NCBI GenBank assembly: GCA_016432545.1
Contig: CP066694.1
Location: 1,307,206 to 1,371,205, forward strand
Length of the DNA: 64,000 nucleotides
Source: an archaeon
GTDB taxonomy: Archaea > Thermoproteota > Nitrososphaeria > Nitrososphaerales > Gagatemarchaeaceae
Reading direction: 5' to 3'
In this document: positions 4,814 to 55,118 of the stretch, piece after piece
Layout: each line of letters starts with the position of its first letter
Numbering within the stretch: position 1 is the stretch's first letter
Position numbers and translations under genes: made by a program
The notes under the pieces: model-generated
What the model was told of the DNA's origin: nothing
What the model saw: only the letters and a program-made list of their open reading frames with translations
The model's database searches: none

Positions 4814-5380
4814 GTCCGATAACCTCTCCCCTATACTCAATCTGTATTTCCTCCTCGATTTCATGATTGGGTCTACGAGATGTCGAACCTCTTTTGTGAC
4901 TTCACGCTCGACTCGGGCATCTCGGCCATGCGAGAGGGCTTCGATGCGTATCCTCTGCTTCATGAGGTTGTCCCATTCATGGTATTGGCTTCTTGAAAGA
5001 AACTCCTGAGGATAGTTGAGAATGTCCATGTGGACCATTGGGAACTGTTGCCTTAATGCCTTCATCCTTGCCATATTCTCGTTTGACACTTCGAGGTCGG
5101 GCGACAGCGTGCGGACGAAGGCTTGAGTAACATCGGTCGGAGTTCTGTTCGCCTTCCTGCGGTCCTGCCATCGGGAGAAACTTGCGATGGACGCCAAAGT
5201 CGTGAGGATAGAAGCGGCCAGGGAGATTGCCGAGAGCCAGTCGAGGGTGGGTATCAAGCCGAATCCCCCGAAGGGGACCGAGGTGACTACCGACCACAGG
5301 TACGACAGTAACGGGTCTATTATCCTCCAGAGTACGATGGTCGCGAGAAGTTCGACGAACCATTGGAGTTTCTTATCCAA
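4793..5380 (-). CDS. hypothetical membrane protein (hydrophobic N-terminal segments, charged soluble C-terminal domain)
   Basis: 195-aa ORF. The N-terminal ~70 aa are hydrophobic (WFVELLATIVLWRII, WLSAISLAASILTTLASIASF). The 3' end overlaps the transposase 3' end by 21 nt. Confidence 0.5.
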   Translation of the reverse strand: MDKKLQWFVELLATIVLWRIIDPLLSYLWSVVTSVPFGGFGLIPTLDWLSAISLAASILTTLASIASFSRWQDRRKANRTPTDVTQAFVRTLSPDLEVSNENMARMKALRQQFPMVHMDILNYPQEFLSRSQYHEWDNLMKQRIRIEALSHGRDARVEREVTKEVRHLVDPIMKSRRKYRLSIGERLSDSLGSSR

Positions 5381-5536
5381 TGCGTCTCATAGCCAGCGAA
5401 TAATCTGAATAAAGCTGTATCACGAAGAGAGTTATCAGAAACACCAACGAGTCCAGCTTAATATGACAGATTCTTCGTGGAACTGTTCAAGATAGCGGCT
5501 CACCGACTTCTCCGTCAAGCGTCGGCTCATGAGGGC

Positions 5537-5968
5537 TTAGGTGTCGAACTTCAGCCGTCTACCGCCTGACATTCGCGCTTCTTCATCCACCGAGAACTCG
5601 TTCTCCATTTCGCGGCGGTCAAAAGAGACGACCGAATTGCCGACGATGATGAGAGCACTCTGTTTGAAACTGAATCGTCTGATGGCGGCTTCAGGTTCTA
5701 CGACTGAAATCGACGACTCGCCCATAGCAACAAAGGCTCTGCCGTTCACCACATCCTTAAGCTCCAGTTCGCCCGAGGAAGTAATCTCATCCCAGCTTCC
5801 TTCAAGGCTGAGTTCTATGAACGAGAGGAATACGTCGTGTCCCACATCATAAGGGCCTCCTCTCGATTCTCTTAACTTGTCGGCAGACGCCAAAGGCGTT
5901 AGCCGTCGGCAGTTAGGGGTCGAAACTAAGGAAGATGTTCCAGAGTCTTTGCACTTGTTCCCGCACAC
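5537..5968 (-). CDS. hypothetical protein (maximal ORF; an alternative TTG start at 5893 would avoid overlap with the upstream gene)
   Basis: 143-aa ORF overlapping the upstream ORF by 56 nt. An in-frame TTG at 5893-5891 would give ~118 aa. Confidence 0.35.
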   Translation of the reverse strand: MCGNKCKDSGTSSLVSTPNCRRLTPLASADKLRESRGGPYDVGHDVFLSFIELSLEGSWDEITSSGELELKDVVNGRAFVAMGESSISVVEPEAAIRRFSFKQSALIIVGNSVVSFDRREMENEFSVDEEARMSGGRRLKFDT

Positions 5969-6476
5969 CTATTCTGGGGATGACCTCCGCGCCAAGGGAA
6001 GACATGAATCGACCGATTTCTTCAGAGCCTTTGGCCGACTCTGAAGGCAGATACGTGAGCTTGACGCTGACTCCCTCCCCTCGTAGTTTCTTAATCGGCT
6101 CAGTGATGCAGAGCTTGTTCAGTTCTCCCTTCCTGTTCCTCTGAATCCTGAAGGCCGTGATTAGCAATGAGCAACCCCCTTTCTCGGCGAACCTCATCTT
6201 TCTATCCATGCATCTGTTCACGGCCTCGAAGTCGCAGAACGGACAATCTCTTTGTTCTTGACAGGAACCGTGGAAGATACAAACTCCCTTCCCTTCGTGA
6301 GAGAATAGGTATCTGCCTGAAACAGGTCTCAGGCTCGCCTTCAGGCCGCTATGCGCATTCTTTCCGATAGTCGTTGATTTGCCCACCCTCGCAACCCCCG
6401 CGACAATCAGCACTTTCTTCGGACGTGGCATGAGTGAGTGATGGCGAGTCAAACGAGTTAAGGCTTCTTTCCTCAT
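5913..6476 (-). CDS. hypothetical Cys-rich protein with a Walker-A-like motif
   Basis: 187 aa. KKVLIVAGVARVGKSTT fits a beta-strand plus GxxxxGK[ST]. A Cys cluster (CIFHGSCQEQRDCPFCDFEAVNRC) follows. No clear Walker B was seen. Confidence 0.45.
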   Translation of the reverse strand: MRKEALTRLTRHHSLMPRPKKVLIVAGVARVGKSTTIGKNAHSGLKASLRPVSGRYLFSHEGKGVCIFHGSCQEQRDCPFCDFEAVNRCMDRKMRFAEKGGCSLLITAFRIQRNRKGELNKLCITEPIKKLRGEGVSVKLTYLPSESAKGSEEIGRFMSSLGAEVIPRIGVREQVQRLWNIFLSFDP

Positions 6477-42227: not shown

Positions 42228-42318
42228 TGGGCCTGGCCGGATTTGAACCGGCGACCGTTCGGTGTCTCGGGATTGCCCGTATGAGCCGAACGCTCTTACC
42301 GAACTGAGCTACAGGCCC
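42228..42318 (-). tRNA. tRNA with CAU anticodon (elongator Met or Ile2) with a 16-nt canonical intron (42264-42279)
   Basis: Manual fold. Acceptor GGGCCTG/CAGGCCC; D-arm GCTC-AGTTCGGTAA-GAGC; anticodon stem TTCGG/CCGAA; T-arm GCCGG-TTCAAAT-CCGGC; discriminator A. Confidence 0.8.
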
Positions 42319-42787: not shown

Positions 42788-43978
42788 GTGTCGAAGCCTA
42801 TCACTACCTTCGAGGACTTCATCAAGAGGATTCTGAAGGTCGTCTTCTGGGTCGCGCTCTTCCTCCCGCTGATAGGCGTCCCGATCTATTACGCCCTCGA
42901 CGGAATCTTCCATTTCCCCATCGACTTCTTCGCGCTCGCGACCGTGAAGCCCCTGGACTTCCTGGCCTTCCAGCTTAACCTGATCAACACCGAGCCCTTC
43001 AGGACCCTCTTCGCGCTCACGGTCTTCCCTGGCTTCACCTTCGTCGCCGTCTATTCCACGATCTTCATGGGCTGGGTCGAGCGCAAGTTCACGGCAAAGA
43101 TCCAGCTGAGGACCGGACCGATGTACGCAGGAAAGTTCGAGGGCATCGCCCAGAACTTTGCAGACTTCTTCAAGCTCCTCTTCAAGGAGATAATCATCCC
43201 CAACGGGGTCGACACCGCGACCTTCGTCGCGATCCCCTTCGCATTGATGGCGGTCGCGGGAGCCCTCATCGCACTGGTGCCCCTGTCGCCCACCACCTAC
43301 ATCGCGAACCCTACAGTTGGCGCCATTCTCGTCTTCGCCATCCTTGGCTTCTCGCCGCTGATCGTGCTCCTCGCAGGATGGGCGAGCAACAGCAAGTATC
43401 CCTTCCTGGGCGGACTGAGGGCCCTCCACCAGCTCGTCGCCTACGAGATCCCTCTGATACTCTCGCTCCTCGGGGCTGTCATCCTTTCCGGCTCGCTCAA
43501 CCTCGCGCCACTCGTCCCCGGAGGCCCGAGCATAGTGACGGCCCAGGCGAGAATCCCCTACATCCTGCTCCAGCCGCTGGGCGCCGCCGTCTTCTTCGTG
43601 GGGGCGCTCGCGGAGCTCGAACGTATACCCTTCGACCTTCCCGAGGCCGACAGCGAGCTTGTTGCCGGGTGGCAGACCGAGTACACGAGCATGCTCTTCG
43701 GGACCTTCCAGCTTGCGAACTTCTCGAGGATGTACATCATGGCAGGGCTCTTCACCACCTTCTTCCTTGGAGGCTGGCTGGGGCCCGCGCCCGTCCCTCC
43801 CGAGGTCTGGTTCATCCTGAAGACGACCGCCGTCATGATTGCCATGATGCTCCCTCGAAGCGTGATGCCAAGGGTCAGGATCGACCAGCTCCTCCGCGCC
43901 GGCTGGGTCAAACTCCTCGCCGCCTCCTTCCTCAACCTCTTCCTTACAATGGTCATCGTCTCCCTGGGGATTGCATAG
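42788..43978 (+). CDS. nuoH: NADH-quinone oxidoreductase subunit H
   Basis: GWVERKFTAKIQLRTGP and ELERIPFDLPEADSELVAGWQTEY motifs. Confidence 0.92.
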   Translation: MSKPITTFEDFIKRILKVVFWVALFLPLIGVPIYYALDGIFHFPIDFFALATVKPLDFLAFQLNLINTEPFRTLFALTVFPGFTFVAVYSTIFMGWVERKFTAKIQLRTGPMYAGKFEGIAQNFADFFKLLFKEIIIPNGVDTATFVAIPFALMAVAGALIALVPLSPTTYIANPTVGAILVFAILGFSPLIVLLAGWASNSKYPFLGGLRALHQLVAYEIPLILSLLGAVILSGSLNLAPLVPGGPSIVTAQARIPYILLQPLGAAVFFVGALAELERIPFDLPEADSELVAGWQTEYTSMLFGTFQLANFSRMYIMAGLFTTFFLGGWLGPAPVPPEVWFILKTTAVMIAMMLPRSVMPRVRIDQLLRAGWVKLLAASFLNLFLTMVIVSLGIA

Positions 43979-45611
43979 CATGGGGACCCTGGCCTACCTC
44001 AAGGGAATCGCGGTCGCAACCTGGAGCGGCATCAGGCACCTCTTCCGCCCGAGGATGACCCTCCGCTACCCCGAGCAGAAGCTGGACCTCGAGGGGCCCG
44101 GATACCAGTACGACGCAAAGCAGGGCGTAGGCCTTCCCGGGTACAAGGGGCGCCACATCCTATTCCTCGACAAGTGCACGGGCTGCCAGCTCTGCGCGAT
44201 CGCCTGCGACGGGGTCGCAGTCGCCATCGACATGCAGAAAGTCCAGAAGGGCAAGCCACAGAACAAGAAGGAGATCTGGCCGGCCGTGGACTATGGCCGA
44301 TGCGTCTTTTGTGGACTTTGCGTTGATTTTAACACAGAAATTGTAACTAATCCGGGATTGAAGAAAATAAATACAATCCAAGTCGGAGACCTCGTCTTGA
44401 CTCACAGCGGCGACTACAAACCTGTTACCAAGGTCTGGGACATGCTCTTCACTGGGCCTTTGTACAAGATCTGGGTCTTCGGGAGGCCGGAACCTTTGAT
44501 TTGTACTGCAGATCACCCAATCATAGCTGTCTCCAGGGCCTACTCGAACCGAAAGGACAGAAGACTCCTAAGGACGACGGGGCCCTTGAAGTTCTACAAG
44601 CCCGGCGAACTGAAGGTCGGAGACTATCTTGTCAGTCCTATCATCCGGAAGGAGGTGCCCATAGAGAAGTTCGAAAAGGAAGTCCCCATGTACAGGGGAG
44701 GCACTCACAAGCAACATCTGAGCCTTCCCGCGACTCCCGAGCTGTTCAGACTGATTGGATACTATCTCGCCGAAGGCTCTTGCGATGGAGGGCGCAGAGT
44801 CAACTTCGACTTCAACAAGACCGAGCTTGAGACTCACGTGCGTGACTGCAACGAGCTCGTAGAGATGCTCTTCGCCAAGCCCGGGAAATTGAAGAAGAAT
44901 GGAACAAACGGGGTCCGCCTTGTCGTCGACTCTGCTGTCGCTGAAGACTTCTTCTCCCAGTTCGGAAAGGGGGCTCCGAACAAGAAGATAGCCGACTGGG
45001 CCTTCTTTGCGGAACTTCCCAAAGTAGTCGAGCTCCTCAAGGGCTATTGGCGCGGAGATGGAAGTCGGATCAGTCAGCCGAGACAGAAGTACTTCAACTT
45101 CACCACCACTTCCAAAGTCCTCGCGTTCCAAGTCCAGGAACTGCTTGCAAAGCTCGGGGTCATCGGCTTGATCGAGGGCCAGCACCAAAAGGATCGACTT
45201 CCCTCCTATCACGTCAATGTCTTTGGGAGGTGGGCGCAGAAGCTCGCAAACCTCTGGAATGTCGAGCTTGGATTCGACGCTACGAAACACGCTGATAAGT
45301 TCCATTTGGAGGGGAACTATGTCTTCCTCCCTATCCGGAAGATCGAAGTGGAGTCAGTGTCAAAGCACAGAGTCATGGACGTGACTGTTGAGGGGGACCA
45401 CACGTTCGCCCCAAACGGGCTTGCCACCTCGAACTGCGTAGATGCCTGCCCCTTCGACGCCCTCTACATGACCAACGAGTACGAGATGTCCGCCTACGAC
45501 AAGGATGCTCTCAAGTACACTCCTGACATGTTGGCGATTCCGCCCAAGGAGGAAGGCAAGAAGTACAAGGTCAAGCTGGACACAGAGAAGGGGGTCTCCA
45601 CCCACGGCTGA
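43971..45611 (+). CDS. nuoI: NADH-quinone oxidoreductase subunit I (2x[4Fe-4S]) interrupted by an intein
   Basis: First cluster motif: CTGCQLCAIAC. The second motif, CVFCGL|CVDACP, is restored when residues 117-488 are removed. The mature length would be 174 aa. Confidence 0.9.
   Translation: MHSMGTLAYLKGIAVATWSGIRHLFRPRMTLRYPEQKLDLEGPGYQYDAKQGVGLPGYKGRHILFLDKCTGCQLCAIACDGVAVAIDMQKVQKGKPQNKKEIWPAVDYGRCVFCGLCVDFNTEIVTNPGLKKINTIQVGDLVLTHSGDYKPVTKVWDMLFTGPLYKIWVFGRPEPLICTADHPIIAVSRAYSNRKDRRLLRTTGPLKFYKPGELKVGDYLVSPIIRKEVPIEKFEKEVPMYRGGTHKQHLSLPATPELFRLIGYYLAEGSCDGGRRVNFDFNKTELETHVRDCNELVEMLFAKPGKLKKNGTNGVRLVVDSAVAEDFFSQFGKGAPNKKIADWAFFAELPKVVELLKGYWRGDGSRISQPRQKYFNFTTTSKVLAFQVQELLAKLGVIGLIEGQHQKDRLPSYHVNVFGRWAQKLANLWNVELGFDATKHADKFHLEGNYVFLPIRKIEVESVSKHRVMDVTVEGDHTFAPNGLATSNCVDACPFDALYMTNEYEMSAYDKDALKYTPDMLAIPPKEEGKKYKVKLDTEKGVSTHG
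44319..45434 (+). mobile_element. intein (372 aa) with LAGLIDADG homing-endonuclease core
   Basis: Starts CVDFNTEIVTNPGLKKINTIQVGDLVLTH and ends GLATSN followed by the +1 Cys. LAGLIDADG-type blocks: LIGYYLAEGSCDGG and LLKGYWRGDGS. The length is in frame (1116 nt). Confidence 0.88.
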
Positions 45612-45627
45612 CGCGATCTTCCTTGGG

Positions 45628-46104
45628 ATGCTGGCCGTCACGGTCGGCGGGGCGATCATGGCCCTCGAGGCCAAAGAGATCGTCTACGGCGCGATAGGCC
45701 TCGCCGGTTCGCTCTTCGGCGTCGCGACCCTATTCTTCCTCCTCGACGCGCCCTACGTTGCGGTCTTCCAGATCGCCGTCTACATCGGTGCAGTCGCGGT
45801 CCTGATACTCTTCACGGTCATGCTCGTCCGGCAGGAGAAGTGGGCCAAGGAGCTCCCGACCGGCTCACTCGCAAGGGTCGCCGGGATAGCTACCGGACTC
45901 GCCATCGCGGTGGCCATCGCCCTCGCCGCAGCGGCGACCGGCCTGTTCAACTCCACAACGACCAACCCGGCCGACTTCGTCAGGATCGGGGAGCTGATCT
46001 CCACCTCCTACGCCCCGGTCCTCGAGGTGCTCGCCCTCGTGCTCGCAGCCTCCATAGTCGCGGCCCTCACACTCTCAAAAGTCGAACGGGAGGAGAATGC
46101 ATGA
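45628..46104 (+). CDS. nuoJ: NADH-quinone oxidoreductase subunit J
   Basis: FQIAVYIGAVAVLILFTVML family pattern. The first ATG in frame after the nuoI stop was used. Confidence 0.85.
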   Translation: MLAVTVGGAIMALEAKEIVYGAIGLAGSLFGVATLFFLLDAPYVAVFQIAVYIGAVAVLILFTVMLVRQEKWAKELPTGSLARVAGIATGLAIAVAIALAAAATGLFNSTTTNPADFVRIGELISTSYAPVLEVLALVLAASIVAALTLSKVEREENA

Positions 46105-46424
46105 ACTCCCTGGCCGACTTCGTCCTCGTCTCGGCCATCCTCTTCGGCATCGGAGTCTACGGCCTGGTCACGAAGCGCAACGCCCTGCGCCTTCTCTTCG
46201 CGGTCGAGCTCATGATCAACGCCGCCAACCTGAATTTCGTCGCCTTTGGCCAGTACCTCCCTCTCGCCCAGGCGGCAGGGCCCAGTGCAGTGGGCCAGAC
46301 CTTCGTCCTGTTCTCCATCGCGCTCGCAGCGGCCGAGGCGGCCGTGATCCTCGCAATAGTGGTCGTCGCTTACAGGCTGCACCAGGACGTCGACGTCAGC
46401 GAGCTGAATTCGATGAAGGGATGA
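46101..46424 (+). CDS. nuoK: NADH-quinone oxidoreductase subunit K
   Basis: LFAVELMINAANLNFVAF ... AAAEAAV. ATGA overlap with nuoJ. Confidence 0.88.
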   Translation: MNSLADFVLVSAILFGIGVYGLVTKRNALRLLFAVELMINAANLNFVAFGQYLPLAQAAGPSAVGQTFVLFSIALAAAEAAVILAIVVVAYRLHQDVDVSELNSMKG

Positions 46425-46477
46425 CAATGGGACTAGACCCAGCTTCGTCGCCTCACAAGAAACCAGTGTAAACCACA

Positions 46478-47980
46478 ATGCAACCATATCTCCTTCTCCA
46501 AGCTATAGTCGTCCCGCTAATCGGCGCCGCGGTCTGCTACCCGGCCGCACGCCGGCTCGGCAAGAACACGGGATGGCTCGCCTTCCTGTTCATCCTCGTC
46601 TCCACGCTCGTCCTCGCCGTCTGGGCGGCTCCGCAGATCTCCGGCGCCGCGGCCGTGACGGAGTCTTACCCATGGGCTCCTACTGCCGGCCTAGAGTTCA
46701 ACCTCAGCGCCGACGGCCTCAGCTTCCCCGTGTTGATGCTGGTCAACGTCGTCCTGGCCGCGACCGCCGTCTACTCAGTCCCGTACATGTCCGCCCGAGT
46801 GAAGTCCCTGAAGGGGGAGGACGACCTCGCAAAGCATGGTATGTACTACCTGAACTTCTTGCTCGTCTCCTCTGGCCTGGCTGGGATCGTGCTCTCCACG
46901 AACCTGATCGAGCTCTACCTCTTCCTCGAGATGGTCCTCATCCCCACCTTCGTAATCATCAGCCTCTACGGCTACGTCAACAAGGAGCGCGTGGCGACGA
47001 TATACATCATCTGGAACCAACTCGGCGCCTTCGTCTTCCTTGCGGGGATCGCCCTCGTGTACGTGGCTACCGGCTCCTTCTCCTACTCGGCGGTCACAGC
47101 CGCCCAGGCAAGCCCCTACGCCTTCTGGATCGCAGGCCTGATACTCCTCGGCTGGCTCGTGAAGATGGCGGTCTTCGGGGTCCACATGTGGCTCCCAATC
47201 ACCGAGGCCGAGCCTCCCACCTCCTTCGCCCCCACGATGGCGGTCGTCTCAGGGATCGGGACGTACGTGATCGTCCGCCTGCTCCTCCTCGGCATGCCCC
47301 TGACCTTCCACTCGTTCAGCCTCCCCCTGATGGCCTGGGCAGTAATCACGATGTTCTATGGCGGGGCCCTGACGCTGGCGCAGAACGACGCCAAGTATCT
47401 GTTCGCCTGGTCGACGATGAGCCAGAACGCCTACTCGGTCCTTGGGCTCGCGAGCCTCTCCGCCTTGGGGGCGGCTGGCAGCGTATTCTACTTCTCGAGC
47501 CACATCCTCGGCAAGTTCGTGATGTTCTCAGTCGCAGGAATCCTCCTGACCCAGACCGGGCTGCGCGACATCAGGAAGATGGGGGGCCTCGCTGCGAAGA
47601 TGCCTCTGACAGCGACCCTCTTCGTCTTGGGAGCCCTCATCCTCTCGGCCGTCCCTCCGACCAGCGGGTTCCAGGCAGAATGGATCATGTTCGCTGGCAT
47701 CTTCTCCCCCGCTGCCTCCGGCTCCTCCTCATACCTCCTCGTCGCCTTCCTGGGCCTTGCCGCTACTATGCTCACAGTCGCATACGCCTTCTGGCCCGTG
47801 AAGCGGATCTTCTTTGGAGAGCTCGCCCCCGACCTCGACAGCGTCAAGGACCCGCCTCTCACGATGACCCTCCCTCTCCTGGCCGTGGTCGCTGTGTCCA
47901 TCGCTGTGGGCATCTTCCCTGACCTCGTCTCAAAGTTCCTCTTCGGTCTAGGCGGGCTACTACCCGGAGGCGCGCCGTAG
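46478..47980 (+). CDS. additional NuoM-like (ND4/Mrp antiporter-like) subunit, divergent
   Basis: LSADGLSFPV and LYLFLEMVLIPTF (TM5 Glu). It has a divergent HMWLPITEAEPPTS where NuoM has HTWLPDAHVEAPSP. Confidence 0.8.
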   Translation: MQPYLLLQAIVVPLIGAAVCYPAARRLGKNTGWLAFLFILVSTLVLAVWAAPQISGAAAVTESYPWAPTAGLEFNLSADGLSFPVLMLVNVVLAATAVYSVPYMSARVKSLKGEDDLAKHGMYYLNFLLVSSGLAGIVLSTNLIELYLFLEMVLIPTFVIISLYGYVNKERVATIYIIWNQLGAFVFLAGIALVYVATGSFSYSAVTAAQASPYAFWIAGLILLGWLVKMAVFGVHMWLPITEAEPPTSFAPTMAVVSGIGTYVIVRLLLLGMPLTFHSFSLPLMAWAVITMFYGGALTLAQNDAKYLFAWSTMSQNAYSVLGLASLSALGAAGSVFYFSSHILGKFVMFSVAGILLTQTGLRDIRKMGGLAAKMPLTATLFVLGALILSAVPPTSGFQAEWIMFAGIFSPAASGSSSYLLVAFLGLAATMLTVAYAFWPVKRIFFGELAPDLDSVKDPPLTMTLPLLAVVAVSIAVGIFPDLVSKFLFGLGGLLPGGAP

Positions 47981-50136
47981 TGGAGCTGGTACTGATCCCA
48001 TACTACATGATGTGGCTCGTCTTTGGGCTCCCGCTGGTCGGTTCCCTGGCCACGGCGGCCCTCCGCAAAGCGGGGAGGGTCTCCAACTACGTGGCCGTCG
48101 CTTTCTCTCTCCTCTCTGCCCTTGCCGCTCTGACCATGATCCTTCCCATCCTCGAGGGGGTAAGCCTGGAGTCGGTCGACTACACCGTGCACTGGATCTC
48201 AGGCCTGAACCTCACATTCGGCGTGCTGTCGGACCCGTTCACCGCGATTCTAGCCAACGTTGTCGCGTGGGTCAGCTTCCTGATCATGGTGTACAGCCTC
48301 GAATACATGAAGGACGACCCGAGTTCCAACCGCTACTTCTTCTTCGTGAGCCTCTTCATCGGGAGCATGCAGCTCATCGTCCTCTCCGACAACCTCCTCT
48401 CTCTCTTCGTCGGATGGGAGATGGTCGGGCTCTGCAGCTACGCCCTGATTGGTCACTACTGGAAGGACGAGACCAAGAACTGGGTCGGGACTCCGGGCGA
48501 CAAGGCCCTCGGAGAGGAGCAGGCGTATTCGCCCTCCCATGCTGGGATGAAGGCCTTCGTCATGACAAGGGTAGGAGACGTCGCGATGCTGGCCGGGATC
48601 CTGATCCTCTTCTTTTACGCAGGGACGTTCAACTACAGAGAGCTTGCCGCGTCCTCTGGCGCCTGGCTCCCGGCCCTTGCGAATGCGGGCCTGCTCGTCC
48701 CGGTCGCCCTCCTGATCTTCGGCGGGGCTGTCGGCAAGTCGGCCCAGTTCCCTCTCCACGAGTGGCTCCCTGACGCAATGGCGGGCCCCGCGCCAGTCTC
48801 CGCCCTGATCCACGCCGCGACGATGGTCAAGGCGGGGGTCGTGCTCGTCGCCCGGATCGCTCCCCTGTTCTACTTCGCGGTCCTCGCCAACCCGTCGCTG
48901 GGCGTCTCATCGGTCCAGCCCTTCTTCCTCACAGTCGCTTGGATTGGGGCCTTCACCGCCTTCCTCGCCGCGACTCAGGCGCTCGTGGGCTTCGAGCTCA
49001 AGAAGATTCTGGCCTATTCGACCATCTCCCAGATCGGCTACATGATGATGGCGATCGGGGTCGCGGGCCTCTCCACCGACTTCGTCCAGGGGCTCTCCTC
49101 GGGGCTCTACCACCTGATGAGCCACGCGATCTTCAAGGCCTGCCTCTTCCTTGCGGCGGGCGCCCTGATCCACGCCGCGGATTCGAAGTACATCAGCGAT
49201 ATGGGCGCGATGCGGAACAAGATGAAGCTCACCTTCGCGGCCTTCCTGATCGCAGTCGCATCGCTCTCCGGACTCCCTCCTTTCAGCGGATTTTGGAGCA
49301 AGGACGCGGTCCTGGCGACAGCGTGGAGCGCCGGACAGTACGCCCTCTTCGCGGCCGGAGCCCTTACCGCGGGCCTGACGGCCTTCTACTCCTTCAGGAT
49401 GCTCGGCATGGTCTTCTTCGGCTCCAAGAGCAAGCGCCTCGAGGAGGTCGAGGCGCAGGGGCATCACCTCCATGAGCCGAGCGCGATAATGTGGGTCCCG
49501 TATGCGATACTCGCCGCTGCCACGGTCCTATTTGGGCTCGTCGCACTTGCCGGACAGGCGGTGCCTTCGCTGAACCTCGAGGCGACCTTCGACTCTGCGG
49601 CGACAGGGTACATCCAACTTCTCTACCCCCAGGCGCCTGTCGGCCAAGGAGCGGGCTTCGAGGCCGCCCCCTCCGGAATCGCGCTTCTCTTCGTTGCCAT
49701 CGGCTTCGGAGTGGCCTACCTCGGATACGTCGCGAGGCGCTGGGCTCCAGGATCGCTCTCGGCCGCGGGGTTCGGGCGCAGCCTTTACGTCTTCTTCGAG
49801 AAGCGCTGGTACATCAACGCGGTCTACTACAAGGTTTTCGTCAACGCGCCCTTGGGGGCCTCCAGATGGCTCAATGACACCTTCGACTTCAAGGGGCTCT
49901 TCAGGGTCAACGACGCCGGCTCCCTCCTAGGGAACAGGCTCTCCACCGCCGGGAACTGGCTCGACGTCAGGGTCGTCGACGGCACGGCCAACGGCATCTC
50001 CTCCTTCGGGCAGCGAATCTCGCGCGGCCTCAGGCGAATTCAGACGGGTATAGTGGAGCAGTACGTCCAGGTCTTCGCGGCGGGCGTGGTCCTCCTCTTC
50101 ATCTTCTTCCTACTGGCCTTCGGGGTGAAGCTCTGA
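47980..50136 (+). CDS. nuoL: NADH-quinone oxidoreductase subunit L (718 aa, long form)
   Basis: LHEWLPDAMAGPAPVSALIHAATMVKAGV, plus a C-terminal lateral-helix region and a final TM. Confidence 0.9.
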   Translation: MELVLIPYYMMWLVFGLPLVGSLATAALRKAGRVSNYVAVAFSLLSALAALTMILPILEGVSLESVDYTVHWISGLNLTFGVLSDPFTAILANVVAWVSFLIMVYSLEYMKDDPSSNRYFFFVSLFIGSMQLIVLSDNLLSLFVGWEMVGLCSYALIGHYWKDETKNWVGTPGDKALGEEQAYSPSHAGMKAFVMTRVGDVAMLAGILILFFYAGTFNYRELAASSGAWLPALANAGLLVPVALLIFGGAVGKSAQFPLHEWLPDAMAGPAPVSALIHAATMVKAGVVLVARIAPLFYFAVLANPSLGVSSVQPFFLTVAWIGAFTAFLAATQALVGFELKKILAYSTISQIGYMMMAIGVAGLSTDFVQGLSSGLYHLMSHAIFKACLFLAAGALIHAADSKYISDMGAMRNKMKLTFAAFLIAVASLSGLPPFSGFWSKDAVLATAWSAGQYALFAAGALTAGLTAFYSFRMLGMVFFGSKSKRLEEVEAQGHHLHEPSAIMWVPYAILAAATVLFGLVALAGQAVPSLNLEATFDSAATGYIQLLYPQAPVGQGAGFEAAPSGIALLFVAIGFGVAYLGYVARRWAPGSLSAAGFGRSLYVFFEKRWYINAVYYKVFVNAPLGASRWLNDTFDFKGLFRVNDAGSLLGNRLSTAGNWLDVRVVDGTANGISSFGQRISRGLRRIQTGIVEQYVQVFAAGVVLLFIFFLLAFGVKL

Positions 50137-51614
50137 TGAGCTTCGTCCTCTCCGTCCTGGTCTTCCTGCCTCTCCTAGCCGCCCCGTCAGTCTACCTGGC
50201 GACCCGCGCGAACAGGCGCGCCGGCCTCTACCTCTCGCTCGCTCTCGGAGCCGTGGTCCTCGCGATAGCTCTCTACACCTCCTGGGCGGTCTACTCGAGC
50301 CCTCCCGCGCCGGGGCAGTACCAGCTGTCCGAGCGCTACTCGTGGATCAACTTCAGGCCCGTGGGCCTCGACTTCCACCTGGGAGTGGACGGCCTCAGCT
50401 CGCCCCTCCTCCTAGTCTCAGCCCTCCTCACCGTGCTCGCGATCTTCGGGTCGCGGAAGCTGATCGACCACCACGAGCCTGAGTACTACTCGCTGATCTT
50501 CCTCTTCGAGGGCGCAATCATGGGCGTCTTCACCTCGCTCAACCTGATACTCTTCTACGTCTTCTGGGAGGTCGTCCTCATTCCGATGTTCTTCTTCATC
50601 GGAGTCTGGGGCGGCCCGAGGAGGAAGTACGCCGCTATGAAGTTCATCATTTTCACTTACGCCGGGAGCACGATAATGCTCCTCGGCTTCCTCTACGTCT
50701 ACCTTGGGATGGGCAGCTCCCCGTCCTTCGACATCCAGGACCTCTCCGGGCACATCCCGGTCGCTCTGCAGTACCTTCCTCTCCTAGCTTCGTTCATCGG
50801 CTTCGCCGTGAAGCTTCCCCTCGTCCCCTTCCACACGTGGCTCCCGGACGCCCACGTCGAGGCCCCCTCGCCGATCTCTGTCCTCCTGGCCGGGGTCCTC
50901 CTCAAGATGGGAGGGTACGGCTTCCTCAGGATCAGCATGGGTCTCTTCCCCCAGGCCTCGTACCAGTACGCCTGGGTCTTCCTAGTCCTTGGGCTCTTCT
51001 CGATGTTCTACGGCGCCGCAGCCGCGATCCTGCAGAAGGACCTCAAGAAGATGATAGCGTTCACGAGCATCAACCACATGGGCTTCGTCCTCTTCGGGGC
51101 CTACGCGACCCTCGCGTACGGGAACCTCCTCGGGGTCCAGGGGGCGATCTTCCAGATGTTCGCCCACGCCCTCGCCGTCGGTAGCCTCTTCATGCTCTCC
51201 GGTTACATCCAGCACCAGGCCGGGACCAGGGAGATTCCTTCACTGCACGGACTCGGAACTTCGATGCCCAGGACTGCCACGATACTCGTCCTCGCCTCGG
51301 CCGCGGCCATGGGGCTTCCCCCTTTCGCGAGCTTCCTCGCCGAGTTCCTGGTCATAGCCGCGGGCATCTCGGCCTTCAGCCTGACCGCGATTTCAATCCT
51401 GGTCCCAGTCATAACGGCGGGATACTTCCTCTGGATGATCCGGAGGGTCGTCCTCTCGGCCCCTGAGCCGGGCCACGAGGTCCACGACATGGGCTGGGCC
51501 GACGTCGCCTCCTTCGCCGCATACCTCGTCCCGCTGGTCGTCCTGATCGTCTTCTCCTATCTCATCCTCACGCCGGCGGCCCCGGTCGCGGCCTATCTGT
51601 GGGGGTTGGCCTGA
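50136..51614 (+). CDS. nuoM: NADH-quinone oxidoreductase subunit M
   Basis: LGVDGLSSPL, FWEVVLIPMFFFIGVWGG and HTWLPDAHVEAPSPISVLLAGVLLKMGGYG. Confidence 0.9.
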   Translation: MSFVLSVLVFLPLLAAPSVYLATRANRRAGLYLSLALGAVVLAIALYTSWAVYSSPPAPGQYQLSERYSWINFRPVGLDFHLGVDGLSSPLLLVSALLTVLAIFGSRKLIDHHEPEYYSLIFLFEGAIMGVFTSLNLILFYVFWEVVLIPMFFFIGVWGGPRRKYAAMKFIIFTYAGSTIMLLGFLYVYLGMGSSPSFDIQDLSGHIPVALQYLPLLASFIGFAVKLPLVPFHTWLPDAHVEAPSPISVLLAGVLLKMGGYGFLRISMGLFPQASYQYAWVFLVLGLFSMFYGAAAAILQKDLKKMIAFTSINHMGFVLFGAYATLAYGNLLGVQGAIFQMFAHALAVGSLFMLSGYIQHQAGTREIPSLHGLGTSMPRTATILVLASAAAMGLPPFASFLAEFLVIAAGISAFSLTAISILVPVITAGYFLWMIRRVVLSAPEPGHEVHDMGWADVASFAAYLVPLVVLIVFSYLILTPAAPVAAYLWGLA

Positions 51615-51615
51615 G

Positions 51616-53073
51616 CTGGTCGACTACCTTACGATCGCGCTCCTTCTCCTTGGGGCATCTTCGCTCCTCCTGCCGCTTCTCCAGCTCCTCAAGGGACGCT
51701 CCCCCATGCTCGCCGGGTACATACTGGCCGGGGTCCTCGCCGCCTCCATGCTCCTGATCGCACTCGCGACCCTCTATCCCTCCGGCTCCTCGCCCTTCGG
51801 CGACCTGATCTCCCCCGACCAGCTCGGAGGCGTCTTCGCGCTCGTCACAGTGGGAGTGACACTCGCGGTCACCGTCGCCTCCTTCGAGACGACCAAGGGC
51901 TCCTCGGCGCCGGTCTACTACAGCCTCCTCTCCTTCACCGCCCTGGGCATGGCGCTCCTGGCCTACTCCAGGGACCTGTTGATGCTCTTCGTTGCGTGGG
52001 AGCTGATGAGCCTCCCCACCTATGCCCTAGCCGGCTATGACAAGAAGCTGAGGTCCAACGAAGCCGCCGTCAAGTACGCCATTATCGGCGCCATGTCCTC
52101 CGCGATCATCCTGTACGCCATCAGCCTCGCCTACGGGCTCACTGGCAGCACCCAGATCTCCGCGGTCGTCGCCGGGTTCTACGCGCACCCCACGGCGCTG
52201 GCGGGCATCTCGACCCTCCTCTTCGTCGCGGGCTTCGGGTTCAAGATGTCCATCGTGCCCTTCCACATGTGGATACCAGACGCATACGAGGGAGCCCCGA
52301 CCACAGTCAGCACCCTGCTGGCCGCAGCGACCAAGAAGGCAGGCTTCGTCGCGGCGATCCGCGTCCTCCTTGGGATCACGACGCTCTACGCGGTGACCCA
52401 GAACCCCCTCTTTACCATGGCCAACGTCTTCGCCGTGCTTGCGCTTCTGACAATGACCGTCGGAAACGTCGCCGCGCTGACCCAGAAGAGCATGACGAGG
52501 CTCCTCGCATACTCAAGCATCGCCCAGGCCGGATACATACTGATAGGGTTCGTCGCCTTCTCCGCGGACCCCACATCTAACGCGGCGTCGATCGGCCTCA
52601 CCGGCTCTATCCTGCACGTGATCAACCACGCGACAATGAAGGGCGCGGCCTTCCTGGCGGCCGCCGCGGTGCTCTTGCAGCTCAAGCGTGCCGACCTCGG
52701 AGCCTACGACGGATTGGCCCGGAGGATGCCCATTACTGCTTTCACGATGACCATAGCCTTGCTCTCTCTGGCAGGCGTCCCGCCGTTGAGTGGATTCTGG
52801 AGCAAGCTCCTTCTCTTCCTCTCGGTGGCCAACGGGCCCTTCGCCTGGCTGGCCCTCGCTGCCATTCTCAACAGCGCCTTCAGCCTCGGGTACTATGCAT
52901 GGATAATCAAGCGGATGTTCGTTGACGAGCCTGAGAACCCGGAGAGGGTCAGGGAGCCGATTTGGTTCGTAGTCGTATTCGCGGTCCTCGTGGGCCTGAT
53001 AGTCGGAATCGGGCTCTTCCCGCAGCAGGCGATCAGCTTCGCTTCAGGCGCGGCCTCGAGCCTCTTCGGCTAG
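51616..53073 (+). CDS. nuoN: NADH-quinone oxidoreductase subunit N (start uncertain: first ATG at 51706, TM1-like sequence in frame from CTG at 51616)
   Basis: FHMWIPDAYEGAPTTVSTLLAAATKKAGF. The upstream in-frame LVDYLTIALLLLGASSLLLPLLQLLKGRSP resembles NuoN TM1. Confidence 0.85.
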   Translation: MVDYLTIALLLLGASSLLLPLLQLLKGRSPMLAGYILAGVLAASMLLIALATLYPSGSSPFGDLISPDQLGGVFALVTVGVTLAVTVASFETTKGSSAPVYYSLLSFTALGMALLAYSRDLLMLFVAWELMSLPTYALAGYDKKLRSNEAAVKYAIIGAMSSAIILYAISLAYGLTGSTQISAVVAGFYAHPTALAGISTLLFVAGFGFKMSIVPFHMWIPDAYEGAPTTVSTLLAAATKKAGFVAAIRVLLGITTLYAVTQNPLFTMANVFAVLALLTMTVGNVAALTQKSMTRLLAYSSIAQAGYILIGFVAFSADPTSNAASIGLTGSILHVINHATMKGAAFLAAAAVLLQLKRADLGAYDGLARRMPITAFTMTIALLSLAGVPPLSGFWSKLLLFLSVANGPFAWLALAAILNSAFSLGYYAWIIKRMFVDEPENPERVREPIWFVVVFAVLVGLIVGIGLFPQQAISFASGAASSLFG

Positions 53074-55118
53074 GTCCACTTTATCTTGATCCGGAGCTTG
53101 GTTGGGAGTATCTTCCTGAAGGGGACCCCTGTCCCTCCGTAGAACTTCGTGAAGAACTCATAGAGATGGAGCCTGAGGTCCTGGACGTACACTATGAACG
53201 CCTCGAAGGCTAGGATCAGCAGGTTGAGGATGACCCACGGAACTATGTACGCCGGGTTGTTCCAGGGCTGCATCAGGTTGATGATCAGCAGCAGAGCCGC
53301 ATGCACGAGGAGCATCACCGCCAGTCTCACGTAAGAAATCGTGTTGGACATGAACTGAGAAATCCTCTCGAAGACTTCCAGGCCGCCTTCTGAGAGCGCG
53401 CCTAGGACCGATCCCTTCAGCTTCCCCGTAGCCACCGCGACGCTCTTCCCCGCGAAGAGGACGAGCATGGACGGCAAAAGGATCGCCAGAGAGACGCCTC
53501 CAAGGACGTTGTTCGGGATCCCGAGAAGCTGGTTCGGAACCGTGCTCTTGAAGACGTCGAAGCTGAATCCCACCCCTATGAAGGCGAGGCCGTAGCCCAC
53601 CCCTGACAGATACATCGTGAGCACAGGGACCTTCTCAAGCAGCAGCTCCATCCTGTCTCCCTCCTTCAGCCCCTGATAGATGCTGAGCGACAGCGCCGTC
53701 GTCAGATGGACGATCCCAATCAGGAAGCTGGCCACCAGCACCAGGTTGACTCCGGCAAAGGGCGTTGGAAGGAAGTTGAACGTGTCGACCGCGCCGGCAG
53801 TCCTGCGGATTATCTCCACCGACGCCGGAATCGGGACGAAGTTGTACAGGGAGAATTCGAAGAACTCTCCGAAGACCACCCCGAAGACTGTCGCAGAAAT
53901 CCCGGAGACCAGGAAAATGTTCGCCCACTGCCTCATGTTGCCGTTGCTCCTCTGCCTGACGAAGAGCATGAAGATCGTGAGGAGCAGGCCGTGCCCGACG
54001 TCCCCGAACATCATCCCGAAGAAGATCGGGAAGACCAACGAGACTATCGGAGTCGGGTCTACCTCGACTCCTCCCGGAATCCCCTGCTCATTGGTTATGG
54101 GCTGGAAGAGGCTGAGGCCCGGCCTGTTAACGACCAGCGTGGGCACCTTCTCTCCCTCCTGATGCCCTTTCACCGGCTCGGAGTGGCAGATCCACCTGCC
54201 GAACGCCTCCCTGGCCGCCTCCTCCCTCCTGGCGGGTATGTACCCGGAGATCGTGGCGAGGCGCTTCATTCCTCCCGAGACCCTCGCCTCGTCGAGCATC
54301 TCCCTGGCCGCCTCCGACAGCTCGCGGACCGCAAGGAGTTCCGACCCGTCCTTCTTCCTGATCTCCGACATCCCCTCCTCCGCCTTGGACTTCTCGACCC
54401 TTGCGGTCTCGAGCCTCGCCGTGACCTCCTTGAAGGCCTCCGACGGGTTCTGGGAGAATTCTCCCGGGATCAGCAGCGGCTTCAACTCAAGGACCTTCAG
54501 GGTCTTGTCGAGCTTTCCCTCGTCCTCTTTCCGCACGGCCGCAAGGATCAGGACCGACTCCTTCGAAATCTGTTGCGTCCTCAAGATCGCCTCTGGCAGA
54601 GAGCTTCGGAGTTCCTCGAGCCTCGCAGCCTCCACGACCGTAAGGACCGCCTTGAGCCTGTGGAGCCCGCTCATCCCCCCGATGTTCGCTGAGAACTTCG
54701 ACAGTGCCTGGAGGGCGTCGATCAGGGTGTGGGCGTCTGCCTCATCCTTGACCGCCTTCTGAAGCTGGGTCTTTTGCCTCTTGACCTCCTCAAAGACCCC
54801 GTCCATAGACTGTTCTGCCGAGTCCATCAGCCCCCTCCATGTGGCTGCCTCTACCTCTTTCCTCTCGACCTTCTCCCCCCTGAAGACGATGTCGATCTGC
54901 CCGGGCATCAGCTTGAGGTCGAGGTCCTTCACGGCCTGGTCGGACTGCGCGAAGAGCCTCACAGCCTTGACAGTCAGTTCCTGAATCGCCGGGTCGAAGT
55001 TCGAGGCCGCCGCCTCGATGGGATGGAAGTCCTCGAACTTGGCCAGCGCCTTCACGACGTCGCTATATTCGCTCCTCGGGGAGATTATCGTGACCTTGGA
55101 AAGACGCGCGACTCCCAT
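53070..55118 (-). CDS. atpI: A/V-type ATP synthase subunit I (a-subunit)
   Basis: 682 aa. N-terminal soluble coiled-coil domain followed by a multi-TM C-terminal domain, typical of subunit I. Confidence 0.9.
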   Translation of the reverse strand: MGVARLSKVTIISPRSEYSDVVKALAKFEDFHPIEAAASNFDPAIQELTVKAVRLFAQSDQAVKDLDLKLMPGQIDIVFRGEKVERKEVEAATWRGLMDSAEQSMDGVFEEVKRQKTQLQKAVKDEADAHTLIDALQALSKFSANIGGMSGLHRLKAVLTVVEAARLEELRSSLPEAILRTQQISKESVLILAAVRKEDEGKLDKTLKVLELKPLLIPGEFSQNPSEAFKEVTARLETARVEKSKAEEGMSEIRKKDGSELLAVRELSEAAREMLDEARVSGGMKRLATISGYIPARREEAAREAFGRWICHSEPVKGHQEGEKVPTLVVNRPGLSLFQPITNEQGIPGGVEVDPTPIVSLVFPIFFGMMFGDVGHGLLLTIFMLFVRQRSNGNMRQWANIFLVSGISATVFGVVFGEFFEFSLYNFVPIPASVEIIRRTAGAVDTFNFLPTPFAGVNLVLVASFLIGIVHLTTALSLSIYQGLKEGDRMELLLEKVPVLTMYLSGVGYGLAFIGVGFSFDVFKSTVPNQLLGIPNNVLGGVSLAILLPSMLVLFAGKSVAVATGKLKGSVLGALSEGGLEVFERISQFMSNTISYVRLAVMLLVHAALLLIINLMQPWNNPAYIVPWVILNLLILAFEAFIVYVQDLRLHLYEFFTKFYGGTGVPFRKILPTKLRIKIKWT

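Follow-up and report, generated by a model that had tools for sequence, protein, structure and literature searches.

The question raised by the locus described here is whether an archaeal complex I can carry four antiporter-like pump subunits in its membrane arm and, if so, which of the four was added. The locus lies in a stretch of 64,000 nucleotides (the window; positions 1,307,206 to 1,371,205 of contig CP066694.1, assembly GCA_016432545.1) from an archaeon of the family Gagatemarchaeaceae, order Nitrososphaerales. Here eight genes follow each other on the + strand (42788-53073) in the order nuoH-I-J-K-Mx-L-M-N, where Mx stands for a NuoM-like gene that is present in addition to a nuoM of standard type. 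The window is part of a complete single-contig genome of 1,504,337 bp, and coordinates are those of the window unless the genome contig, G000:C1, is named. The operon is best read, with a probability of about 0.8, as the membrane arm of a four-pump complex I of the kind known as 2M, in which the standard M is the added subunit and Mx the native one.

Every subunit assignment was backed by Pfam and NCBIfam profile matches. The last four genes all match PF00361, with E-values (E) of 1e-46 to 1e-66: Mx (46478-47980, +; 500 amino acids (aa); PF00361 E 2e-46), nuoL (47980-50136, +; 718 aa; NuoL NCBIfam, 527 bits), the standard-type nuoM (50136-51614, +; 492 aa; TIGR01972 (NDH_I_M), 457 bits) and nuoN (51616-53073, +; NDH_I_N, 305 bits; 455 aa from the ATG at 51706, or probably 485 aa from the CTG at 51616). 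A whole-genome search found these four as the only PF00361 genes, all in the operon. Stop and start codons overlap at Mx/L (ccgTAGTGgag) and at L/M (ctcTGATGagc). An earlier reading of this DNA, made without database searches (the sequence-only reading), had proposed the same gene order, overlaps of the form TAGTG and TGATG, and a single operon for a four-pump 2M enzyme. The open reading frames (ORFs) and profile matches agree with that gene order, the overlaps can be read directly in the sequence, and gene content, the clade of the M proteins and the NuoL insert described below are all in line with the four-pump proposal.

The affiliation of the pump subunits was determined from two trees. 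The first held 91 antiporter-like proteins from the present genome, 20 Thermoproteota relatives and references (E. coli NuoL/M/N, HyfB/D/F and HycC; S. aureus MnhA2/D2; D. shibae MrpA/D; and the 'green' complex I subunits of S. meliloti pSymA). The second had 118 rows, with about 75 named NuoM added from a genome-contig scan, and 16 of its rows on a branch 3.7 long (mis-trimmed ORFs, high-GC loci) were ignored. Mx and the 492-aa M both fall inside one NuoM clade in the 91-protein tree (Shimodaira-Hasegawa-like approximate likelihood ratio test (SH-aLRT) 99), and the 118-row tree agrees. In the 91-protein tree this clade excludes MrpA/D, HyfB/D/F, HycC and the MrpD-like subunits of the green enzyme, L joins NuoL with MrpA as outgroup, and N joins NuoN. 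These placements bear on whether Mx might be part of another module, an antiporter or hydrogenase of Mrp/Mbh type that adjoins the nuo genes. This suggestion could draw on the weaker NCBIfam matches of Mx to MrpA (182 bits) and HyfD (171 bits). Such an origin is highly improbable, as the tree sets Mx apart from MrpA, MrpD, Hyf and Hyc, the genome has no further PF00361 gene, the nuo locus has no Mrp-type small-subunit genes (the search for MrpB/E/F/G being limited to the locus), and amoA-positive relatives have an Mx-type protein as their only M.

Within the NuoM clade two deep subclades are separated. The Mx-type subclade (support 100) contains Thermoproteota sequences only, and the standard subclade (99-100) holds the 492-aa protein together with E. 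coli and S. meliloti NuoM. In the 118-row tree the 492-aa M clusters with its orthologues (100), and the sister group of this clade (94) is bacterial and euryarchaeal NuoM taken together; no bacterial group in the sample encloses the clade, and it points to no donor. The best NCBIfam family for Mx is NDH_I_M, but at 242 bits it stays under the cut-off of 263.8 bits. This score, the odd HMWLPITEAEPP motif and the lack of the lysine in transmembrane helix 8 (TM8) might suggest that the divergent Mx is the fourth pump, added to a canonical L-M-N arm, and the Mx of this genus does look laterally acquired; the sequence-only reading had called the 500-aa protein the extra subunit. The distribution of the two types among relatives argues for the opposite assignment. 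The order K-Mx-L-N was found in three amoA-positive genomes of ammonia-oxidising archaea (AOA), for which a whole-genome PF00361 search gave three pump genes each, and in three further three-pump genomes of the order. Genomes with Bathyarchaeia- or Methanomethylicia-labelled proteins have K-N-L-Mx. The arrangement K-Mx-L-M-N was found in the present genus and six further families of its order, and also in two Bathyarchaeota-labelled soil metagenome-assembled genomes (MAGs). The three amoA-positive genomes and those with Bathyarchaeia/Methanomethylicia labels thus have the Mx-type protein as their sole M, whereas among the relatives examined the standard type occurs in four-pump Mx-L-M-N operons only. 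Since an Mx-type M is present in every Thermoproteota cluster examined and the standard M only in four-pump operons, the added subunit is, judging by this distribution, the standard-type NuoM between nuoL and nuoN, and Mx is the native Thermoproteota-type M. The xenology of Mx in the genus would mean that an Mx-type gene already present at this K-Mx-L position was exchanged, not that one was added, and it is very unlikely that Mx is the added pump.

The history of Mx differs from that of its neighbours. The L, N and standard M of the genus group with those of the order and its Mx does not; it joins Bathyarchaeia- and Methanomethylicia-labelled M at 100/100, with a long shared branch, and a one-residue deletion in TM8 is common to the genus Mx and M of the Bathyarchaeia/Methanomethylicia type. 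Forcing the Mx proteins of the order to be monophyletic costs 158.6 log-likelihood units, with a p-value of 2e-57 in the approximately unbiased test (p-AU) for a group that was chosen after the first tree. The native M of the genus appears to have been replaced in place by a foreign Mx copy of Bathyarchaeia/Methanomethylicia type.

With regard to residues, Mx retains E151, K229, H342 and E401, and has Gly259 where E. coli NuoM has the TM8 Lys (K265) and Gln316 in place of H322. All 22 Mx-type proteins, the only M of AOA among them, have the Gly in TM8, and 21 of the 22 have the Gln; both are traits of the archaeal Mx family and not peculiar to the present gene. The motif FLEMVLIP and the divergent HMWLPITEAEPP, both pointed out earlier, were found in the translation, with the TM5 Glu kept. 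The ITEAEPP variant of the WLPxAHxEAP loop was seen only in the present genome and its closest relative; Glu in place of His at this loop was also seen in one Bathyarchaeia sequence. The standard M retains E145, K226, K257, H314, H344 and E403; L retains E147, D200, K253, H278, H378, H382, K386, K441 and D442; and N retains E99, E119, K180, K210 and K367 (numbered from the ATG at 51706). Across diverged lineages, both Mx and M keep Glu in TM5, Lys in TM7 and Glu in TM12.

The lateral helix of NuoL (HL) was compared in a MAFFT alignment of 24, later 30, NuoL sequences. All four-pump NuoL have an extra block between the RWY(I/L/V)(N/D) and VVDG...QTG motifs. The RWY-to-QTG spacing is 79 residues (78-80) in 12/12 four-pump proteins, 53-54 in 11/11 three-pump proteins and 49 in E. 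coli. The insert in the present NuoL is of 26 residues, about 636/639-661/664 (49885-49971, +), the borders being ambiguous because of a repeat, and residues 639-664 are its only large segment specific to itself when compared with three-pump NuoL of the same order. Using phmmer against the solved cyanobacterial NdhF chain 6hum_F, query residues 8-623 and 661-710 align and 38 query residues face 11, which corresponds to 27 extra. The peptide to which the sequence-only reading had drawn attention, DFKGLFRVNDAGSLLGNRLSTAGNWL followed by VVDGTANG, equals the 26-residue insert, and lies inside HL as proposed and not in another part of the protein. The total length of 718 aa, which had been taken as a further mark of the 2M type, did not prove to be one. 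NuoL is ~110 residues longer than its E. coli counterpart with the excess spread over nine segments, of which the HL module makes up 26 residues, and three-pump relatives already reach 669-704 aa (701 aa in G184) through loop insertions elsewhere; it is therefore the HL block, and not the length of NuoL, that serves as a marker.

The HL region was scanned for self-similarity at periods 18-35 with 500 shuffles. A peak at period 26 was found in 10/12 four-pump NuoL. The summed scores reached +173 for period 26 and +22 for period 27, and were below zero for all other periods. Signals in single proteins were weak, as 10 to 319 of the 500 shuffles equalled them. Taken together, the signals suggest that the insert arose long ago by tandem duplication of the adjoining 26-residue unit of HL. 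At 1.5 Å per residue, 26 helical residues measure ~39 Å, which is about the width of one pump. In an AlphaFold2 model of NuoL (mean predicted local distance difference test score (pLDDT) 77.3, predicted template modelling score 0.79) residues 613-684 form one helix of 72 residues, which is followed by TM16.

The length of HL could also be unrelated to pump number, with three pumps in each particle and Mx and M either alternative isoforms or one of them not assembled. This would suit two Bathyarchaeota-labelled genomes, G017 and G080, where a long HL is found with a single adjacent M, and also the low confidence for HL in the AlphaFold2 model. Within the order, on the other hand, the HL module and the fourth gene co-occur in 12/12 four-pump and 0/6 three-pump genomes (the 12 include the Bathyarchaeota-labelled MAGs L058 and L061, the order membership of which is presumed). 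The two M genes lie in one operon with translational coupling, and the Glu, Lys and Glu kept in both indicate that purifying selection acts on the two of them. A three-pump particle is consequently considered unlikely.

The long HL in G017 and G080 is of a different age to that described above. Their NuoL have a young HL tandem duplication of 27 residues, with scores of 77 and 50 that none of 500 shuffles equalled (0/500); it can be seen in the NuoL of G017 (L032 4740-6830) and G080 (L033 11566-13743), for example as EVGFFNGLQYGV...EVGFFNNLQYGV. A fourth pump gene was not found beside these long-HL clusters, where ATPase A/B/I genes follow Mx in G017 and the gene between L and Mx in G080 is RNase E/G-like and not a pump gene; a different contig of G017 carries two additional PF00361 genes. 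The length of HL alone is no proof of a fourth pump, and the case made here depends on the presence of the fourth gene and on the strict co-variation within one order.

The remaining core subunits were located outside the window. A single nuoA-B-C-D set, preceded by a citrate synthase and a CBS-domain gene, is present at G000:C1 about 1392211-1396009, ~31.9 kb downstream of nuoN; the sequence-only reading had suggested that it be sought elsewhere in the genome. Core subunits A, B, C, D, H, I, J and K are thus all encoded, H-K in the window and A-D 32 kb downstream. NuoE, NuoF and NuoG gave no tblastn match at E 1e-3 genome-wide (queries E. coli NuoE/F/G and S. meliloti NuoE), and the positive controls NuoCD, B, A and H gave one match each in the genome. 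One nuoABCD set, one nuoH match and no NuoE/F/G together indicate a single complex I of the 11-subunit type plus an extra pump gene. Simple paralogy between two operons had been raised as an alternative; with four PF00361 genes and one nuoABCD set in the genome, there is no second complete nuo operon.

The separation of nuoABCD from nuoH-N was also found in three other genomes of the genus examined, and in other families of the order the cluster is either unbroken (A-B-C-D-H-I-J-K-Mx-L-M-N) or differently divided. In two genomes from two other families of the order, G175 (L045 4257-16001) and G185 (L044 5850-14893), the genes are regrouped by module: both have the membrane arm A-H-J-K-Mx-L-M-N on one strand, and G175 has B-I-D, of the peripheral arm, divergent on the opposite strand. 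Genomes of the same genus differ in the number of PF00361 matches, with six to eight each in G153, G158, G162, G164 and G172, and the extra matches include L-like ORFs of 718-755 aa on other contigs. These five genomes would therefore carry a second antiporter-type cluster that is missing from the present genome.

The closest public proteins bear Thaumarchaeota, Nitrososphaerota or Nitrososphaerales MAG labels, and the genome GC content of ~60% falls in the range published for Gagatemarchaeaceae (PMC10640624). Archaeal amoA was not found in the genome and is present in three genomes of another family of the same GTDB order; the host, an archaeon of soil type, is therefore a non-ammonia-oxidising relative of AOA.

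On the four-pump reading the genes would encode a 12-subunit, complex I-like quinone reductase made of NuoA, B, C, D, H, I, J, K, N and L and two M-type subunits, without the NADH-oxidising NuoEFG. Its four antiporter-like subunits would stand in a row, clamped by the NuoL helix HL, which is longer than in three-pump relatives by one 26-residue module, or about one pump width. Electrons from a low-potential donor, commonly proposed to be ferredoxin, would reduce quinone at NuoB/D/H, and the wave that passes through the membrane arm would drive five instead of four proton-translocating sites. Gene content, the operon, the clade of each subunit, the HL insert with its relation to pump number and the kept channel residues are observed. 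That both M subunits are in one particle, and in which order, is something we infer from the sequence, as are the electron donor and the ratio of protons to electrons.

Several observations weigh against this reading. Mx-type M proteins are without the central TM8 Lys and one His, so that their competence in pumping is not self-evident. The pLDDT of HL is only 35-66 in the AlphaFold2 model, which is weak support for a continuous helix, and the amphipathic moment of the insert (muH 0.32) does not stand out significantly from shuffled sequences, 496/5000 of which were as high. G017 and G080 combine a long HL with no fourth pump gene beside the cluster, and co-assembly of the two M subunits would have to be concluded from their genes. 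The direction of change is a further point, as either the heterotrophs may have acquired the fourth pump or the three-pump clade to which the AOA belong may have lost it, and the tree leaves both standing: a concatenated tree of NuoL (HL removed) and NuoN had a backbone without resolution, and monophyly of the four-pump genomes was not rejected (p-AU 0.33).

The 2M complex I was reportedly described by Chadwick, Hemp, Fischer and Orphan in 2018 (ISME J 12:2668). The present operon resembles it in that one nuo cluster holds two genes of the NuoM clade, which brings the antiporter-like subunits to four, and in an insert of ~26 residues in the HL of NuoL. It differs from it in that the M genes come from two deep NuoM subclades and are not recent duplicates, the order is K-Mx-L-M-N and the cluster is separate from nuoABCD. 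In PMC9040806, a second NuoM and a 26-aa HL insert in NuoL are given for Nitrospira and others. Aylward and Santoro 2020 (PMC7300363) attribute a 2M complex I without NuoEFG to heterotrophic marine Thaumarchaeota. A 2M complex I in non-ammonia-oxidising Thaumarchaeota is therefore already published and the present locus is a further example.

With the marine heterotrophs the present archaeon shares a non-ammonia-oxidising host, the lack of NuoEFG and the second NuoM, and a ~1-Mb relative whose Mx clusters with that of the Tara-sourced G175 (marine by label only) has the same Mx-L-M-N order and the HL insert. The present genome differs from theirs in its ~60% GC, its size of 1.5 Mb and its family, and in having an Mx xenologue of Bathyarchaeia/Methanomethylicia type and inteins in nuoI and nuoB. 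The eleven-subunit complex I of AOA has families A, B, C, D, H, I, J, K, Mx, L and N in common with it, as well as the K-Mx-L order and a NuoL that is 44-47% identical; in the three amoA-positive genomes it differs by the lack of a standard M, by having three PF00361 genes and by an HL that is 25 residues shorter. A statement in PMC9038741 has it that AOA possess a duplicated M, unlike the three amoA-positive genomes searched here, in which none was seen.

More distant systems also have additional or exchanged pumps. The rhizobial 'green' complex I and Complex_I_3 of Ca. Manganitrophaceae are listed in PMC9040806 as having more than three pump subunits, with MrpD-like ones replacing NuoL or standing beside it. 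The enzyme described here differs in having a real NuoL with HL and TM16, and the MrpD-like proteins of S. meliloti pSymA lie outside both the NuoM and the NuoL clade and group with none of its subunits. It is set apart from the canonical 14-subunit NADH:quinone oxidoreductase by the lack of NuoE, NuoF and NuoG in the tblastn search, and from Mrp and Mbh-Hyf-type modules by MrpA/MrpD, HyfB/D/F and HycC falling outside the Mx clade. In the literature compared, the original 2M description aside, no statement was found of an origin of the M pair from two subclades, of co-variation within an order or of a replacement of Mx.

It is possible, although the odds are put somewhat below even, that within the order the fourth pump and the HL module always travel together, by one gain in the heterotrophic lineages or by a joint loss in the AOA stem, with an in-place swap of Mx in one genus besides. 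If so, pump subunits would be exchangeable cassettes, and their number would depend on whether a discrete HL repeat is duplicated or deleted. The order would then provide natural pairs of four-pump and three-pump enzymes, with the same L, N and Q-module, for comparison. The locus provides a four-pump complex I from a complete genome among the heterotrophic relatives of AOA, and corrects which M is the add-on. The joint presence or absence within the order gives comparative support for an HL length that is matched to pump number, a marker that fails outside the order. General knowledge of complex I is left unchanged by the finding; its practical use would be as a source of closely related three- and four-pump enzymes for structural or stoichiometric comparison.

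The first four genes of the operon are nuoH (42788-43978, +; 396 aa; PF00146 E 9e-92, NuoH NCBIfam 293 bits), nuoI (43971-45611, +; 546 aa), nuoJ (45628-46104, +; PF00499 E 2e-26) and nuoK (46101-46424, +; 107 aa; PF00420 E 1.5e-27). The start of nuoJ is uncertain and was set at the first in-frame ATG that fits the N-termini of relatives, and the ATG of nuoK at 46101 agrees with the start in relatives. NuoI contains a LAGLIDADG intein, with NuoI and Fer4 matches at residues 19-120 and near the C-terminus. The intein (about 44319-45434, +; ~372 residues; matches to LAGLIDADG_3, Intein_splicing and Hint_2) sits in the second 4Fe-4S motif, with the extein junction CVFCGL|CVDACP. In the same genus, NuoI is longer still in G164 (818 aa; L057 2941-5397), and is intein-free with 171 aa in G154 and G156. 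NuoB, outside the window, has an intein of ~405 residues (Intein_splicing E 4e-11; L008 about 4919-6133, G000:C1 about 1392918-1394132) at the site that corresponds to residue 129 in E. coli NuoB; two iron-sulphur subunits of one enzyme are thus interrupted by inteins.

Upstream of nuoH there are no nuoA-D genes and, as noted previously, an aSUI1-like ORF (named from the earlier label and from reading its translation) and one tRNA are found there instead. A tRNA-SeC(tca) called by ARAGORN at 42228-42318 (-) was rejected, as the Rfam tRNA model (63 bits) gives a normal tRNA. According to this model the anticodon loop reads CUCAU and is followed by an insertion of 18 nt, which indicates an intron-containing tRNA with the anticodon CAU (Met or Ile2).

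At the other end of the operon, the nuoN frame is open 5' of the first ATG (51616-51705) and encodes LVDYLTIALLLLGASSLLLPLLQLLKGRSP, which can be aligned with TM1 at the N-terminus of NuoN in G154. There the start codon is TTG, in the place where the present genome has CTG (51616). The start of nuoN is probably this CTG; otherwise NuoN would be without TM1. An ORF of 682 aa (53070-55118, -) converges on nuoN, and the two stop codons overlap by 4 nt.

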